Position numbers and translations under genes: made by a program. A model generated the notes under the pieces. That model did no database searches, was not told the origin of the DNA, and saw only the letters and a program-made list of their open reading frames with translations. From Alphaproteobacteria bacterium (GTDB taxonomy: Bacteria; Pseudomonadota; Alphaproteobacteria; UBA828), in the NCBI GenBank assembly GCA_965237415.1, contig CBDEFM010000002.1, forward strand, positions 3,456,001 to 3,520,000: 64,000 nt of DNA, given 5' to 3'. How positions within the stretch are numbered: position 1 is the first letter of the stretch; each line of letters opens with the position of its first letter. This document shows, piece after piece, positions 23,283-27,898 of this stretch.

Positions 23283-24923
23283 ATGAGCCGGGAATCGATG
23301 GAGTATGACGTGGTGATCGTGGGCGCGGGCCCCGCCGGGCTCGCGGCTGCCATACGCTTGCGTCAGCTCGCCGAGGAGTCCGGCCGCGAGATCAGCGTGA
23401 CCGTGCTGGAGAAGGGTTCGGAGGTAGGCGCCCACATCCTCTCCGGCGCCGTCTTCGAGCCTCTCGCGCTGGACGAGCTGATCCCGGACTGGAAGGAGAA
23501 GGGTGCGCCGCTTAACACGCCGGCAGGCAGCGACGAGTTCCGCTACCTCACCGCCAAGGGCAGCATCAGGATGCCGGGTGCGCTGCTGCCGCCGCAGATG
23601 CGCAACCACGGCAACTACATTATCAGCCTCGGCAATCTCTGCCGCTGGCTGGGTCAGCAGGCGGAGGAGATCGGCGTCGAAATCTACCCCGGCTTCGCCG
23701 CAGCCGAGGTGCTCTATCACGAGGACGGCCGGGTCAAGGGCGTCGCCACCGGCGACATGGGCATCGCCAAGGACGGCAGCCAAAAGGCCGGCTACGAGCC
23801 GGGCATCGAGCTGCATGCAAAGTACACGCTGTTCGCCGAAGGTGTGCGCGGTTCGCTGACAAAGCAGCTGGTCGAGCGTTTCGACCTGCGCGCGCGCTCG
23901 GACCCGCAGACCTACGGTATCGGTCTCAAGGAGGTCTGGGAGATCGAGCCCGACAAGCACCGGCCGGGCCTGATCCAGCACAGCTTCGGCTGGCCGCTTG
24001 ATAGCCGCACTTATGGCGGCTCCTTCCTCTATCACTTCGATGAGAACCTGGTCTCGATCGGCTTCGTGATCGCCCTCGATTACGAGAACCCGCACCTCTC
24101 GCCCTTCGACGAGTTCCAGCGCTTCAAGACCCATCCCTCGATTCGCCCCGTGCTTGAGGGGGGCCAGCGGCTGGCCTACGGCGCACGCGCGATCAACGAG
24201 GGCGGATACCAGTCGATTCCCGAGACCGTCTTCCCAGGAGGCGCGCTGATCGGCTGCGCCGCAGGCTTTCTCAACGTGCCCAAGATCAAGGGCAGCCACA
24301 ACGCGATGAAGAGCGGCGCGTTGGCGGCAGAGGCGGCGTTCGCCGCGCTGGGCGAGGCCGATGACGGCACGAAGCCGCTCGACGCCTACCCGGCGGCACT
24401 TCGTGACTCTTGGGTGGTCAAGGAGCTCAAGCAGGTCAGGAACTGCCGCCCAGCGTTCCGCTGGGGGCTCGCCGTCGGCACCGTGGTCAGCTTCATCGAG
24501 CTTTGGACCGGCGGCGTGCTGCCCTGGACGCTCCGCCATCGGCATGACCACGAAAGCCTGAAGAAGGCAGCCGATGCGCCGAAGATCGCTTACCCGAAGC
24601 CGGACGGCGTCGTCTCCTTCGACAAGCCGAGCTCGGTCTACCTTTCGAACACCAATCACGAGGAGGATCAGCCGGCGCATCTTACGCTCAAGGACCAGGG
24701 CGTGCCGATACGGGTGAATCTCGCGCTCTACGACGCGCCGGAGCAGCGCTATTGCCCGGCCGGCGTCTACGAGATCGTGGAGGACGCCGCAGGCCCGCCG
24801 CGCCTGCAGATCAACGCGCAGAACTGCGTGCACTGCAAGACCTGCGACATCAAGGACCCCACGCAGAACATCGAATGGGTGGTGCCCGAAGGCGGGGGCG
24901 GCCCGAATTATGCCAACATGTAG
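23283..24923 (+). CDS. Electron transfer flavoprotein-ubiquinone oxidoreductase
   Basis: [55 protein letters not shown]. Confidence 0.96.
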
Positions 24924-26715
24924 GGCAGGGGAGGGCGCGACCCAGAGTCGGCGGGGTGCACGCGGCCGCTGTCGCCGCACGGTCGGCTGGTTGAGCGGTG
25001 CGCTCGCCGTCTGTCTGACAGGCGGGATCTGCACGGGCGGTCTGTGGGCCGCCGATGAACAGACTCCGCCCCTGCCGCCGGAGCCCTCGGCCAGCGCCTA
25101 CCGCGACAACGGCTCGCCGATCGGCAGCTATCTCGTCGGGCGCTACGCCCACGCCCGCGGCGACTATGCCGCAGCGGCCAAGCATTTGCAGCGTGTCCTG
25201 AACACGGATCCCGACAATCCCTCGCTGCTGCGCCGTACTGTGTCGTTGCTGGCCGCCGAAGGTCGGATCGAGGCAGCGGCCGCGTTCGCGCGGCGCCTCG
25301 TCGAGGTCGACAACGACGCGCGGCTGGCCCCCTTCGTTCTCGGCTTGCAGGACGCGCGAAACGGCGACTACGAGGGCGCTCTGCAGCGCATCGACGCGAT
25401 CCGCCGCGACGGCGTCTATTCCCTCTTGATCCCTCTCGCCGAGGGGTGGCTGCACACCGGTACCGGGTCGGACGCCGCGGCTCTGGCGGCCCTCTCGCCG
25501 CTCGCCGATCGCGACGCCTACCGACCCTTCTATCTTCTCCATGCCGGCCTGATGCACGATCTCGCAGGTCGCGAGGCGGAGGCCGAGGCTCTCTTGCGGG
25601 AGGCCGTGGCGATTTCCGCCGGCTCCCACCGCCCGGTGGCGGCGCTCGGCAGCGTTCTGTTGCGGGCCGGGCGCACCGTCGAGGCCCGCGCGGTCTACGA
25701 GCAATACCGCGCGCAGAATCCCGAGAATATATGGGTTGAGCGTGTGCTCGCGGCCGCCGATGCCGGCATGTCGGTGCCGCCGCTCGTTGCCGACGCGCGC
25801 GGGGGGCTGGCGGAGGCCCTGCTCGGTGCAGCTGCCGCCCTGCCGCAGCGGGACAATGGCGACGCCGCTGTGATCTATGCGCGCCTTGCCCTCTTCCTCC
25901 GCGACGATCTGGATTCCGTTCGTTTTCTGATCGGAGAGATTCTCGAACAGACGGAGCGGGTGGAAGCTGCAGTAGACGCCTACCGGTCCATCCCCGCCGG
26001 GTCGGACTACGCCTGGGCCGCACAGCTTCGCGCTGCCTCCGGCCTCGCGGACCTCGACCGGCAGGACGAGGCGATCGCTGCGCTGAACGCCATGGCGGAC
26101 GAGCGCCCCGGGCGAATCGACGCCGCCTCTGCTCTCGGCGACGTGTTTAGGGTGGATGAGCGCTACGAGGAAGCCGCAGCCGCTTACGACATGGCGATCG
26201 GGCGGCTCGCGATCGTCGAGGACCGCCACTGGCGCCTCTTCTACGTGCGCGGCATCGCGTTTGAGCGTTTGGGGGAATGGCCCAAGGCCGAGGCCGATTT
26301 CCTGCGCGCGTTGGAGTTGGAGCCGGATCAGCCGCTCGTTCTCAACTACCTCGGCTATTCCTGGGTGGAACAGGGGCGCAATCTCGACGAAGGCAAGACC
26401 ATGATCGAGAAGGCGGTCGAGCTCAGGCCGGACGACGGCTACATCGTCGACAGTCTCGGTTGGGTGGCGTACAGGCTGGGCGACTTCGAGGAGGCGGTCT
26501 ACCAACTCGAGCTGGCGGTCGAGCTGGTGCCAGGCGATCCGATCATCAACGATCACCTGGGTGACGCTTATTGGCAGGTGGGCCGGCTGAACGAGGCGCG
26601 ATTCCAGTGGCGGCGCGTTCTTACCCTTGAGCCGGAGGACGAGCTCGCCGACCAGATCCGGCGCAAGCTCGCGGACAGCCTCTCCGCCGGGGCGGAGGCT
26701 GACGAAGCAGAATAG
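24910..26715 (+). CDS. Periplasmic tetratricopeptide-repeat protein (start codon uncertain)
   Basis: TPR repeats with [28 protein letters not shown]; conserved location between ETF-QO and ispE. Confidence 0.88.
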
Positions 26716-26730
26716 AGTGCCCGCGGTAAT

Positions 26731-26999
26731 TGACCCGCAATTCTCACCACGGTCGTGGCCTGCGTCGCACCCAGGCGTTCGATCCGCCAGGAGCGGGCCG
26801 AAAAGCGTATCGGGGAATACGGTTGAGGCCCGCGACGCCGCGGGCGGGCGCCTAGGTGCGACCCGGAGGGCGGCGGTATCCGGCCGACAGTGTGCGTCAC
26901 TGCGCATGCCCGATGCCCCACATCGCGCTGCGCGCCGTTCCTTCCCTGTCGGCCGGATACCGCCGCGCAGACCATGACCGTGGTGAGAAATGCGGGTTA
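26731..26999. mobile_element. MITE-like, Y-shaped palindromic element inserted at the 5' end of ispE
   Basis: 34-bp terminal inverted repeat (26731-26764 / 26966-26999, 30/34 match); second stem 26764-26781 / 26845-26862; perfect 21-bp third stem 26870-26890 / 26946-26966; no transposase. Confidence 0.75.
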
Positions 27000-27898
27000 G
27001 GGTCGGGGCGCCGGCCAAGCTCAACCTTTACCTCCATGTGACCGGCCGCCGCGCCGACGGCTATCACGAGTTGGACAGCCTCGTCACCTTCACCGGGCTC
27101 GCAGACACGCTGGAGATCGCGCCGGCCGGATCCCTCCGCCTCAGCGTAACCGGCCCGTTCGCCGGCGCCTTGGATGCGGGCGACAATCTGGTCGCGCGGG
27201 CGGCGACGGCGCTGGCGGAGAAGCTTGGCCGCCCCGCTAATGTGCGAATCACGCTCGACAAGCGCATCCCGATTGCGGCCGGCCTCGGCGGCGGCTCGGC
27301 CGATGCGGCTGCGGTCCTTCGCGGCCTCGCCCGGCTGTGGCGGCTCGGCGCCGGGCACGCAGGCGATCTTCGGGAGACCGCGCTCGGTCTCGGTGCCGAC
27401 GTGCCGGTCTGCCTCGACTCGCGCGCCGCCCACATGGCGGGCATCGGCGAGGCGTTGAGCGCACCGCCGCACCTGCCGCCATGCGGCGTGCTGCTGGTTA
27501 ATCCCGGCGTGCCGGTGCCCACCGGGCCCGTCTTCGCGGCGCGGCGCGGGCCGTTCTCGGCCGCGAGCCGCATCGATGAAGCCCCGCAGAATGCGGCGGC
27601 GCTTGCCGCGCTGCTGCGCAGCCGACGCAACGATCTGGAACAGCCTGCGCTCGCTCAAGTGCCCGAGATCGGCCGAGTGCTCGCCCGGCTTGCCGCAGCC
27701 CCCGGTTGCCTGCTGGCCCGCATGTCCGGCTCGGGCGGCACCTGTTTCGGCCTGTTCGAGGACGAGGCGGCGGCAGCCGGCGCAGCGGACGCCATCGCTC
27801 GCGACGATCCGGCCTGGTGGGTGCAGCCGACACGGCTCGTCCACGATGGTGGGATGGCCGAGACGGCGGACGAGGTGGCTACCCTCGGCGGGTCGTGA
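26990..27898 (+). CDS. ispE: 4-diphosphocytidyl-2-C-methyl-D-erythritol kinase
   Basis: APAKLNLYLHV, DGYHEL, KRIPIAAGLGGGSADAA, GADVP, RMSGSGG. Confidence 0.96.
   Translation: MRVRVGAPAKLNLYLHVTGRRADGYHELDSLVTFTGLADTLEIAPAGSLRLSVTGPFAGALDAGDNLVARAATALAEKLGRPANVRITLDKRIPIAAGLGGGSADAAAVLRGLARLWRLGAGHAGDLRETALGLGADVPVCLDSRAAHMAGIGEALSAPPHLPPCGVLLVNPGVPVPTGPVFAARRGPFSAASRIDEAPQNAAALAALLRSRRNDLEQPALAQVPEIGRVLARLAAAPGCLLARMSGSGGTCFGLFEDEAAAAGAADAIARDDPAWWVQPTRLVHDGGMAETADEVATLGGS

Follow-up and report, generated by a model that had tools for sequence, protein, structure and literature searches.

The ispE gene of G000, the genome holding the window (the whole 64,000-nucleotide stretch analysed here; its coordinates are used throughout and other G numbers denote sister species), very probably starts inside a mobile element: a MITE has inserted into its first codons, and a terminal inverted repeat (TIR) of the MITE supplies the start codon from which the gene is now read. 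ispE is an essential gene. The best explanation overall, to which we give a probability of roughly 0.55, is that of a MITE insertion, a new start at the ATG of the repeat, and coupling of translation from this ATG through the relic of the old reading frame. In an ancestor of G000 and G004, or in a donor to them, the MITE would have entered ispE at a TA that lies five codons into the gene, severing the native GTG and the first five codons from it. Translation of ispE would now proceed from the right-repeat ATG (GGTGAG-AA-ATG), with MRV replacing MPAVI. The element and its duplication together amount to 267 nt (89 codons, in frame), so a reading frame continues to run from the old GTG. Ribosomes coming from the TPR gene or from the old GTG would translate this relic ORF, thereby melting the stem over the SD and ATG, and the ATG would come into use at or after termination, through re-initiation or through a new 30S subunit binding at the opened site. 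The family would be pre-adapted to such use, since each end of the element reads outward as stop-SD-ATG, and in-frame insertions in the first codons may therefore survive, even in essential genes.

The features of the locus are listed in Table 1. The TPR gene gave TPR-type NCBIfam matches, every one under its curated cut-off, and its synteny with ispE was kept in 30 of the 30 loci examined. The original prediction had placed a GTG in the ispE frame one base past the TPR stop, two in-frame TGA codons at the right end of the element and a GGTGAG-AA-ATG in the ispE frame; the ORF coordinates agree and all of these sequence statements hold. The element provides the ispE start ATG, the Arg codon and codon 3 up to its second base, giving the N-terminus MRVRVGAPAK. 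This ATG is the only canonical start between the in-frame TGAs and the conserved APAK motif, and no other ATG, GTG or TTG was found between TGA 26984 and the APAK lysine codon. The relic ORF is 86 codons long, its native part being the ispE GTG and five codons (26717-26731), and 12 nt separate its end from the new ATG. The 86-aa relic peptide, from the sole long frame of the element, had no NCBIfam family match, and the element itself is short and without a transposase gene.

Table 1. Features of the TPR-ispE locus, in window coordinates.
Feature	Position	Strand	Remarks
TPR-repeat protein gene	24910..26715	+	ORF; stop TAG 26713-26715; conserved upstream neighbour of ispE
Relic upstream ORF	26717..26977	+	GTG start; 81 codons through the element; TGA 26975-26977
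Left target duplication copy	26731..26732	.	TG now, a degenerate TA
MITE copy	26733..26997	+	265 nt, non-coding; Y-shaped (three-way junction) fold
Left terminal inverted repeat	26733..26764	+	5' side of the terminal stem
Arm 2 of the fold	26764..26862	+	Stem pairing; covariation helices 2-4
Arm 3 of the fold	26870..26966	+	Closed by a perfect 21-bp stem; covariation helices 6-7
Right terminal inverted repeat	26966..26997	+	TGA 26975; TGA 26984; SD-like GGTGAG 26982-26987; ATG 26990
Right TA target duplication copy	26998..26999	.	Within ispE codons 3 and 4
ispE as now read	26990..27898	+	302-aa ORF; 4-diphosphocytidyl-2-C-methyl-D-erythritol kinase

Comparison with relatives of the same genus revealed that the ispE site is empty in 18 of 20, where the TPR stop is followed by the ispE start with no element between them. 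The native start at the empty sites is a GTG that a single base separates from the TPR stop (in G007, TAG-a-GTG, MPAGIRVGAPAK), just as predicted, and in G020 the empty site reads MPAETRVGAPAK, with TA exactly at the insertion point. It had been proposed that deleting 267 bp would restore a normal IspE N-terminus, and the relatives indeed show that N-terminus. Two species are occupied: G004 shares the insertion of G000, and G018 has a separate insertion 13 nt upstream of its GTG.

The element belongs to a multicopy mobile MITE family that is spread through the genus, and the genome-wide search for further copies suggested by the original prediction found them together with their TA flanks. In G000 there were 77 matches to the element, among them 19 full-length copies of 264-292 nt with 78-91% identity, and the repeat ends matched with no more than 2 mismatches numbered 111; the family was present in 18 of the 20 other species. 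TA stood on both sides of 11 of the 19 full-length copies in G000, and among 96 copies genus-wide it was found on both sides in 46, on one side in 43 and on neither in 7. These flanks agree with the TA duplication that had been read from the TG and TA bordering the ispE copy, whose left duplication has decayed from TA to TG. The target was YTAR, with Y at -3 in 91/96 and R at +3 in 92/96 copies. For a possible 4-bp YTAR duplication, the outer positions matched in 68 and 66 of the 96, against about 52-54% expected from base composition. Thus TA may be the minimal duplication, and YTAR the most that it may comprise; no 5-bp duplication was seen among the 96 copies. Copies between co-directional genes lay forward in 28 cases and reverse in 18, which was not significant. 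A search of Rfam with the element gave no family at threshold, and its best hit, a plant miRNA model that scored 23 bits where the gathering score is 168, was a chance match.

The supply of a start codon by the repeat is not confined to ispE. Within G000, tpiA, lptD and the genes for a MetE-like protein and a LivH-like permease take their start from the same repeat end, and in other species so do aroA, hpaB and transporter genes. The ORFs beginning at a repeat ATG were real genes in 8/8 cases tested in G000 and 13/13 in other species. Native starts were checked against relatives for four genes, ispE, tpiA, the MetE-like gene and lptD. The tpiA site was empty in 18/19 relatives and occupied in one, the MetE-like site was empty in 13/13 and the lptD site was empty in 11/12 and occupied in one; at all three the native start had been displaced by insertion, 2-4 codons into the gene. 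The multicopy TA-flanked family, the empty sites and the other genes started in the same manner support the first of three options offered by the original prediction, namely a MITE with an outward in-frame start that makes its insertions self-rescuing.

The near-complete self-pairing of the element had been predicted from the ispE copy, as a Y with a perfect 21-bp third stem, and these stems were confirmed. The terminal arms (32 nt) are 91% complementary and form a near-perfect terminal stem of 31 bp, the third stem (26870-26890 with 26946-26966) is 100% complementary over 21 nt, and the second-arm stem is 93% complementary over 14 nt. The RNA from 26717 to 27010 folded at -204.4 kcal/mol, as compared to -140.8 ± 4.9 for shuffled sequences (n = 200; z = -13), and none of the 200 shuffles was as good. 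In an alignment of 40 copies 98% of cells were paired, so that the Y shape is family-wide, and the terminal inverted repeats were conserved across all 40. Both sides had changed in 24 of 94 pairs, against 8.9 ± 2.0 in shuffled alignments, of which 0/500 reached 24, and against 4-8 in slid controls; in helix 6 (arm 3) both sides changed in 10 of 23 pairs. Folding and covariation thus both support the proposed structure.

Coupling of ispE to the relic ORF was assessed from the anatomy of the insertions and from folding calculations. At ispE, tpiA and the LivH-like and amidase genes the native frame crosses the element as far as a stop 12 nt short of the new ATG; at the MetE-like gene this distance is 3 nt. 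In the 266-nt copies (L125, L140, L137 and the tpiA copy of G004) the frame stops at a TAA/TGA of the right boundary, overlapping the new ATG, with an overlap of 11 nt. Opening of 26981-26995 in the folded RNA was computed to cost 32.3 kcal/mol, which in silico agrees with the claim that the SD and ATG would be buried in the terminal stem. The computed cost was 6.6 kcal/mol when 26960-26989 was held open, as by a terminating ribosome, and that of opening the native GTG region was 7.2 kcal/mol. Coupling through the old GTG, the second option of the original prediction, would fit both the anatomy and the folding calculation. The dependence of ispE expression on coupling to the relic ORF is put at odds that are even or just fall short of even.

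The orientation of the copies also bears on coupling. We scored a fusion as sole-start, by a rule of our own, when a Pfam domain or signal peptide begins before the first alternative start. Such fusions occurred at 10 of 53 ATG-bearing forward ends as compared to 1 of 60 reverse ends (Fisher p = 0.003; post hoc). The native frame was open in 90/96 copies in the forward and 40/96 in the reverse sense. By our estimate a stop-free frame of about 81 codons is expected about once per six frames in such GC-rich DNA, and an open frame through the element is by itself unremarkable. No clear sole-start fusion was found among 28 reverse ends having both an ATG and an open frame, so orientation would seem to matter by a cause other than frame openness.

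The alternative that survives best, itself unlikely, has the same MITE and the same start in use, with the repeat ATG acting independently of the relic ORF. A cut by a double-strand-specific RNase, breathing of the duplex, or a transcription start inside the element would then give access to the ATG. The long duplex of the Correia elements of Neisseria is reported to be cut by a double-strand-specific RNase, and the near-perfect terminal stem of the present element is, from general knowledge, the type of duplex that such enzymes cut. Two loci use the repeat ATG with no relic ORF ending nearby: the ABC ATPase gene at L317, in reverse orientation, relies on the repeat ATG despite closure of its native frame 156 nt upstream, and at lptD the native frame ends away from the repeat ATG. 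Frame openness was also no significant predictor of sole-start fusions (10/78 open vs 1/35 closed, p = 0.17, post hoc). Finally, re-initiation in reporter work declines sharply as the distance grows, with hardly any left at about 20 nt, as given in the accessible part of the report (PMC10666635), which would make the 12-nt gap marginal for pure termination-reinitiation. Against independent use of the ATG, unaided opening of the SD-ATG costs 32 kcal/mol, and a simple consensus scan for one promoter type, which is weak evidence, found 0 sigma-70-like promoters in 26400-27200 (0.1 expected); a terminator consensus scan at the locus likewise returned 0. Symmetric cleavage, moreover, does not predict the orientation bias, and the two transcripts fold equally, with mean MFE of -189.3 kcal/mol for the forward and -191.3 kcal/mol for the reverse. 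Of the 96 copies, only 35 had the forward transcript as the more stable one, and the idea that G-U pairs favour its fold was dropped.

A further alternative, compatible either with coupling through the relic ORF or with an independent repeat ATG, is that the element is kept by selection as a structured RNA or DNA signal, which sets the ratio of TPR to ispE expression or stabilises the message; we consider this improbable. It draws support from the divergence between G000 and G004. The element with its junction differed at 2 of 265 positions, neither of them within a stem, and there were no differences at 26701-26865 or 26907-27070, while the TPR gene differed at 52/1216 and ispE at 37/861 positions, with third codon positions about 9-10% divergent. 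No 284-nt window outside the element had fewer than 5 differences (mean 12.9). The part of the lptD copy shared by the two species differed at 2 of 150 positions, as against 3.8-4.5% in its flanks, and the family-wide covariation supports the fold. However, the orthologous tpiA copy had 24 differences in 265 nt, with 3.1-3.3% in its flanks, and has diverged at the neutral rate. Arm 3 is deleted in the lptD copy of G004 and so is dispensable there. A metagenome strain very close to G000 (4 mismatches in 349 flank bases) carries the empty allele, whereas the more distant G004 (13 in the same flanks) is occupied. Recent allelic transfer of a tract of about 370 bp, which takes in the two stretches without differences, would explain the low divergence equally well, and binding by a transposase or the formation of DNA hairpins would also be expected to make repeat arms covary.

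That the element is removed or bypassed in RNA, or that the GTG is read through, so that the native IspE N-terminus is still made, was the third option of the original prediction, and we now regard it as very improbable. In its favour, the insertion keeps the frame, at exactly 89 codons, and a joined form without 26731-26999 occurs in two RNA libraries, as contigs that possibly derive from RNA or from contaminating DNA. In the joined form, however, CC replaces the 269 bases to give ATC CGG, as at the empty sites of most relatives. It carries flank variants at 26658, 27071, 27127 and 27192, while those of the occupied contigs in the same runs lie at 26677 and 26700, and it also occurs in run X3, the kind of which is not on record; given these different flank haplotypes, the joined form, the sole one found, is the empty DNA allele of a close second strain. 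Read-through would need the decoding of two in-frame TGAs, and the absence of an Rfam family at threshold for the element also speaks against removal in RNA. The four public runs consist of contigs, which are unable to show transcript ends or levels; contig depth over the element is inflated by its other copies, and uncovered parts of ispE in the RNA runs are uninformative.

The ispE gene as now read appears to be functional. Its product matched the NF011202 equivalog at 351 bits (cut-off 204) over residues 3-284, the gene is single-copy in G000, and 25 of its 37 differences from G004 fall at third codon positions. Dxr is present in G000, and HMG-CoA reductase, a marker of the mevalonate route, was not found in this genome, which is estimated to be 96% complete with 6% contamination. 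An assembly artefact or a dead ispE, the former being conceivable for a repeated element open to misjoins in a genome of this completeness and contamination, is hence a very improbable reading, because G004, an independent genome, has the same junctions (2359 nt ungapped, 96.1% identity), metagenome contigs from three studies bridge both the TPR-element and the element-ispE junction, the gene is a full-length equivalog with mostly third-position changes and the MEP pathway is present.

Hairpin MITEs that duplicate TA, are co-transcribed and affect the expression of neighbouring genes are known as Correia elements or NEMIS in Neisseria and as ERIC and YPAL in enterobacteria. Their known features are promoters, cleavage by RNase III and an influence on mRNA stability, and we know of no routine replacement of essential-gene start codons by them. 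Translational coupling between adjacent genes was reportedly described by Huber et al. in 2019. As in the coupling between adjacent genes covered in the accessible part of Huber et al. 2023 (PMC10666635), the relic stop lies beside the new start and the downstream site is buried in structure, which translation from upstream would open. The usual spacing between coupled genes is -4 or -1, in contrast to the +12 nt gap at ispE and the 11-nt overlap of the 266-nt copies, and the upstream ORF at ispE is a transposon-made relic, unlike the gene found in that position in adjacent-gene coupling.

Repeats that supply start codons are a known phenomenon, of which this element family is a variant; the expectation of an undescribed system was therefore too strong. 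The accessible part of Adams and Brown 2019 (PMC6382973) describes MITEAba12 of Acinetobacter, the TIR of which supplies the first codons (MQQS) in three records and the parent insertion sequence of which was identified by matching TIRs. MITEAba12 resembles the ispE element in being non-autonomous, with terminal repeats and start codons at its termini. It is 113 bp long, with 9-bp duplications, about -24 to -27 kcal/mol of folding energy and an active outward promoter, whereas the ispE element has 265 bp, about -190 kcal/mol, TA/YTAR targets and no consensus promoter seen. Its fusions, in that part of the report, were noted from annotation without empty-site proof, while the starts of the ispE element were verified against relatives; these starts displace those of housekeeping genes, while the old start persists in an ORF ending beside the new ATG. 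The REP2 repeats of Neisseria likewise carry a ribosome binding site together with an ATG (Delihas 2011, PMC3184786). According to the accessible part of the same paper, REP2 also comprises a promoter with a 5' UTR, differs from a transposon in lacking TIR boundaries and a target duplication, and is not described as displacing a native start by insertion within a CDS. Among the literature matches listed, there was no account that combined MITE insertion, start codon and translational coupling.

The insertions show how a transposable element can occupy essential genes (ispE, tpiA, lptD, aroA) without killing the host, and starts inside the repeat are easily mis-annotated by gene calling in these genomes. 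About a dozen natural loci bear on coupling across a 200 kcal/mol hairpin lying between the old and the new start. Tentatively, the terminal repeat can be viewed as a portable stop-SD-start cassette (TGA-N6-TGA-GAA-ATG, with a TA target): after insertion into the first codons of a gene, given a suitable frame and orientation, ribosomes from the displaced start would cross the hairpin of about 265 nt, terminate within the cassette and hand over to the new ATG, making insertions in essential genes self-rescuing and fixable. Were this so, the element could colonise gene starts in the TA-poor genomes of the genus, and the host would gain a structure-gated point of translational control.

The MITE family could also be linked to a class of insertion sequences by its ends. 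The outermost 17 nt of the repeats are the ends of 1.7-kb elements in one Acidobacteriota genome and one Candidatus Versatilivorator genome (paired hits L179/L180 and L183/L184, with identical 17-nt ends). Both elements encode a 420-aa PF13701 transposase (E = 5e-144 and 1.5e-139), and both share the TA/YTAR flanks of the MITE. Since a single 16-mer is expected by chance about 280 times in 596 Gb by our estimate, the match draws its weight from the paired, TA-flanked hits enclosing a transposase. At the ispE copy, the first 17 nt of the left repeat equal the IS1380-family termini except at position 8, which is A here and T in the consensus. By this match the termini would tie the family to the IS1380-family insertion sequences (PF13701, DDE_Tnp_1_4), from which the MITE differs in being without a transposase. 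Duplications of the IS1380 family range from 4 to 5 bp, per ISfinder. IS1247, a member of that family, is 1672 bp long with IR 16/13 and a duplication of 5 bp (PMC3281130, accessible part), where that of the MITE is TA, at most YTAR. The autonomous transposase with matching ends, for which the original prediction had suggested a search, may have counterparts in other phyla, but no matching ends lie near the three PF13701 genes of G000 (best, 4 mismatches in 16). Nor did G000 yield convincing paired repeat ends enclosing a transposase; a 3.6-kb interval (C2:1635619-1639195) showed no clear transposase-like ORF by eye, and a search with PF13359 (DDE_Tnp_4) gave no match. In the open literature, as covered by titles and abstract openings, with subscription journals outside the scope, no description of an IS1380-derived MITE was found. 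If the repeat does act as a portable start, the arrangement may be widespread, as IS1380-family elements of distant phyla carry the identical terminal 16-mer. A parent of the IS630/Tc1-mariner type would fit the TA duplication but was rejected, as the ends of the resident IS630-type element are quite different; that element is 1190 bp long and present in 5 copies, and DDE_3 matches number 11 in all.

Re-reading of the sequence bore out exactly the original description of the junction between the TPR-protein gene and ispE, where a non-autonomous, Y-shaped MITE lies in frame inside the start of ispE. The terminal arms pair over 32 nt (91%), the third arm is closed by a perfect 21-bp stem, and the RNA fold of the element region lies 13 standard deviations below shuffled sequence. 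The ORF opened by the outward-reading terminal repeat was identified as IspE (NF011202 equivalog, 351 bits; cut-off 204), and the repeat ATG is the only ATG, GTG or TTG downstream of the last in-frame TGA and ahead of the conserved APAK. The gene is evidently in use, because it is single-copy in this genome (G000, estimated to be 96% complete), where Dxr was found and HMG-CoA reductase was not, and because 25 of its 37 differences from ispE of G004, another species of the genus, fall at third codon positions.

Features of the ispE junction (window positions) and further loci in this genome (contigs C1 and C2), other species of the genus and distant phyla
Feature	Position or locus	Strand	Remarks
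TPR-protein ORF stop, TAG	26713-26715	+	
Native-type GTG	26717	+	one base past TPR stop
Element, 265 nt	26733-26997		flanks TG (left), TA (right)
Two TGAs	26975, 26984	+	ispE frame
SD-like GGTGAG	26982-26987	+	within right arm
ATG	26990	+	within right arm; start of 302-aa ORF
tpiA copy	L002:1501-1765		start-supplying; C2, outside window
lptD copy	L008:1503-1766		start-supplying; C2, outside window
MetE-like copy	L017:1504-1795		start-supplying; C2, outside window
LivH-like copy	L009:1503-1767		start-supplying; C2, outside window
LivM-type permease	L125		forward fusion dependent on repeat ATG
Oligopeptide ABC ATPase	L140		forward fusion dependent on repeat ATG
Sensor kinase, G012	L295		forward fusion dependent on repeat ATG
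HpaB	L331		forward fusion dependent on repeat ATG
AroA	L319		forward fusion dependent on repeat ATG
Sensor kinase, G000	L341:771-2150 (C2:2579070-2580449)		
Sensor kinase, G004	L343		
Sensor kinase, G012	L359, L295		
IS630-type copies, G000	C2:3623890, 3662495, 3755729, 1591157; C1:409831		DDE_3 domain coordinates
Exact 16-nt repeat end	L179/L180, L183/L184, L187, L194, L216, L217, L228, L229		distant phyla

The TPR-ispE gene pair was kept in all 30 loci examined, and an empty junction, as had been anticipated, was found in 18 of 20 same-genus relatives; G004, whose IspE is 96% identical, carries the same insertion as this genome. In the nearest empty sites the stop is followed by one base, GTG and then MPAGIRVGAPAK (G007) or MPAETRVGAPAK (G020), the latter with TA exactly at the insertion point, and the empty site MPAVIRVGAPAK reconstructed beforehand is therefore sound. 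In G018 a related copy has inserted independently, at the TA belonging to the TPR stop codon and 13 nt ahead of the ispE GTG. This copy is a longer relative of the element (~322 nt, L044:1164-1487) whose first base, a G, rebuilds the TAG of the TPR gene; any element whose terminal base is G or A restores a stop on its left when it enters the TA of a TAG or TAA stop codon. In G018 the repeat ATG opens a 7-codon frame whose terminal TGA overlaps the ispE GTG.

Every full-length copy in this genome was read outward from the repeat ATG. Besides ispE, all eight long ORFs so opened had Pfam matches beginning near the N-terminus, namely TpiA (domain from residue 10), squalene/phytoene synthase, a glycosyltransferase, CtaA, LptD, a LivH-type permease, an amidase and a MetE-like protein. 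No alternative start precedes the conserved N-terminal features in tpiA, the MetE-like gene, lptD, the permease and a sensor kinase gene. Empty sites in relatives prove that native starts were displaced in the first three of these. TpiA begins MAPES... in relatives and MRAKF... here, where the native ATG, three codons and TA are stranded across the element, an insertion common to this genome and G004. The MetE-like gene was empty in all 13 relatives inspected, including G004, and reads MKLSTERIL... there versus MRVSTERIL... here, while lptD was empty in 11 of 12 relatives (MIRTLAPL...), with MRVKALAPL... in this genome and G004. Four of the start-supplying copies outside the window, in which the right repeat opens a housekeeping gene, have the native start exactly 10 nt ahead of the element (ATG-NNN-NNT-A), so that the new protein is unchanged in length and altered at residues 2-3 alone. 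In the other species (77 copies), 13 ends were in frame with real genes. By our own rule for a sole start, that a domain or signal peptide begins ahead of any alternative start, the repeat ATG is required by five fusions in forward orientation and by one in reverse (ABC ATPase, L317). Start codons donated by a repeat to the adjacent gene have been published before: the TIR of MITEAba12 is described as supplying MQQS to three CDSs (PMC6382973), Neisseria REP2 repeats as carrying a ribosome binding site together with an ATG, and BOX, RUP and BRE repeats as extending genes 5' (the last two in a review, PMC3184786). What is new is the empty-site proof of displaced native starts in essential genes, and the recurrence at about a dozen genes across one genus.

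The sensor kinase gene lies downstream of an OmpR-type regulator and takes its ATG from a diverged repeat end in this genome and G004, and an intact 265-nt copy is present at this gene in the distant G012. The insertion target was the TA of the regulator's TAG stop. In G009 the start without element reads GTG-CGG-GCT, resembling the repeat end, which may be a footprint or a coincidence.

As the element and its duplication together measure 267 nt, the old GTG at ispE is still in frame and opens an 86-codon relic ORF through the hairpin, terminating at a TGA 12 nt ahead of the repeat ATG. The same layout was seen in tpiA, the permease, the amidase and the MetE-like gene (gap of 3 nt in the last); in 266-nt copies the relic ORF stops at a TAA or TGA formed at the right boundary, with an 11-nt overlap with the ATG. 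Folding calculations gave a cost of 32.3 kcal/mol for freeing 26981-26995 in the folded RNA, 6.6 kcal/mol when 26960-26989 is kept unpaired, as it would be by a ribosome on the stop codon, and 7.2 kcal/mol for opening the old GTG region. The relic ORF would deliver ribosomes to the new start across the hairpin, an arrangement that would itself be new. The locus anatomy is what translational coupling would need, and coupling, proposed earlier as a switch, is taken here as the likeliest mechanism. Besides the anatomy and folding energies, indirect support comes from a strong orientation bias: sole-start fusions were found at 10/53 ATG-bearing ends in forward versus 1/60 in reverse orientation (p = 0.003), and an open native frame in 90/96 copies read forward versus 40/96 in reverse. 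Frame openness, however, was not a significant predictor of sole-start fusion (10/78 open versus 1/35 closed, p = 0.17), and the 28 reverse ends with both ATG and open frame included no clear sole-start case. L317 and lptD depart from the coupling model, and re-initiation in published reporters is described as nearly gone at ~20 nt (PMC10666635); all these points count against coupling. Initiation independent of the relic ORF, after RNA processing, is a serious rival.

A contig joining 26730 to 27000 through CC, which replaces 26731-26999, was found in three public sequencing runs (X3, X8, X13). Excision at the RNA level, also proposed originally, is contradicted, because this joined form, with its CC and its own flank variants unlike those of occupied contigs in the same runs, is the empty allele of a close strain and has the ATC-CGG seen at the empty site in most relatives. 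Compared with this genome, the flanks of the joined form carry 4 differences in 349 bases (~99% identical), and since it sits beside occupied contigs in the same metagenomes, the ispE insertion is polymorphic among very close strains; the more distant G004 is occupied. Between this genome and G004 the ispE copy differs at 2/265 positions, both outside stems, and the flanking genes at 4.3% in both (~9-10% of third codon positions). This low divergence of the copy may reflect selection or recent allelic transfer. The tpiA copies have diverged at roughly the neutral rate (24/265 positions), and the lptD copies show 2 differences over the shared 150 nt. The G004 lptD copy (L104) has lost the whole third arm (~100 nt) and kept both terminal repeats and the ATG, thus the third arm is not needed for supplying a start.

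The expectation of further copies was borne out genome-wide by 77 matches, 19 of them full-length (78-91% identity); repeat ends with at most two mismatches numbered 111, many being solitary or from shorter derivatives. Of 20 other species in the genus, 18 carry the family; it was not found in G015 or G016. TA flanks were scored in 96 copies, 19 of this genome and 77 of fifteen other genomes, and were present on both sides in 46, on one side in 43 and on neither in 7. The target is YTAR, since the next outward base was a pyrimidine on the left in 91/96 and a purine on the right in 92/96. Alignment of 40 copies, leaving out four 283-292-nt variants and two near-duplicates from the 46 then assembled, gave a Y-shaped fold common to all, with 98% of cells paired. 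Both-sided changes occurred in 24/94 pairs, against 8.9 ± 2.0 in shuffles (a count as high was reached in 0/500) and 4-8 in slid controls. Transposase binding would also give covariation between repeat arms; helix 6, however, which lies within the third arm, had both-sided changes in 10/23 pairs.

The 16-nt repeat end was scanned for exact matches in one genome per species, yielding at least 122 stretches. Single matches carry no weight, because we estimate ~280 by chance for a 16-mer in this collection; paired matches do. An Acidobacteriota genome and a Candidatus Versatilivorator genome each hold two inverted, TA-flanked copies 1.7 kb apart, like the MITE in their flanks, enclosing a 420-aa PF13701 (IS1380 family) transposase (E = 5e-144 and 1.5e-139). 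Several other phyla have short TA-flanked pairs (176-262 bp) whose interiors are unrelated. Since paired ends enclose such transposases, the element ends are those of an IS1380-type element, which is also new here; and since the exact end is shared with distant phyla, the repeat end with its outward stop-SD-ATG is, by this distribution, much older than the genus. The duplication here is TA at a minimal reading and may be 4-bp YTAR, whereas IS1247, of the IS1380 family, is described with 5-bp duplications (PMC3281130). No matching ends were found alongside the three PF13701 genes of this genome. An IS630-type parent was rejected, as the resident IS630-type elements duplicate TA, yet have ends that differ from those of the element. 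A 1190-bp IS630-type element is present in five copies (96-99.9% identical) with TA and CTAG flanks, and two MITE copies (right ends C2:3149045 and C2:2072361) share a TA with an adjoining sequence that has IS630-type ends. Two inverted, near-identical ~450-nt copies of another sequence flank an IS1380-family transposase gene at C2:2314927-2317397 (L277), an arrangement that looks like insertion into, or rearrangement of, a duplicated gene end.
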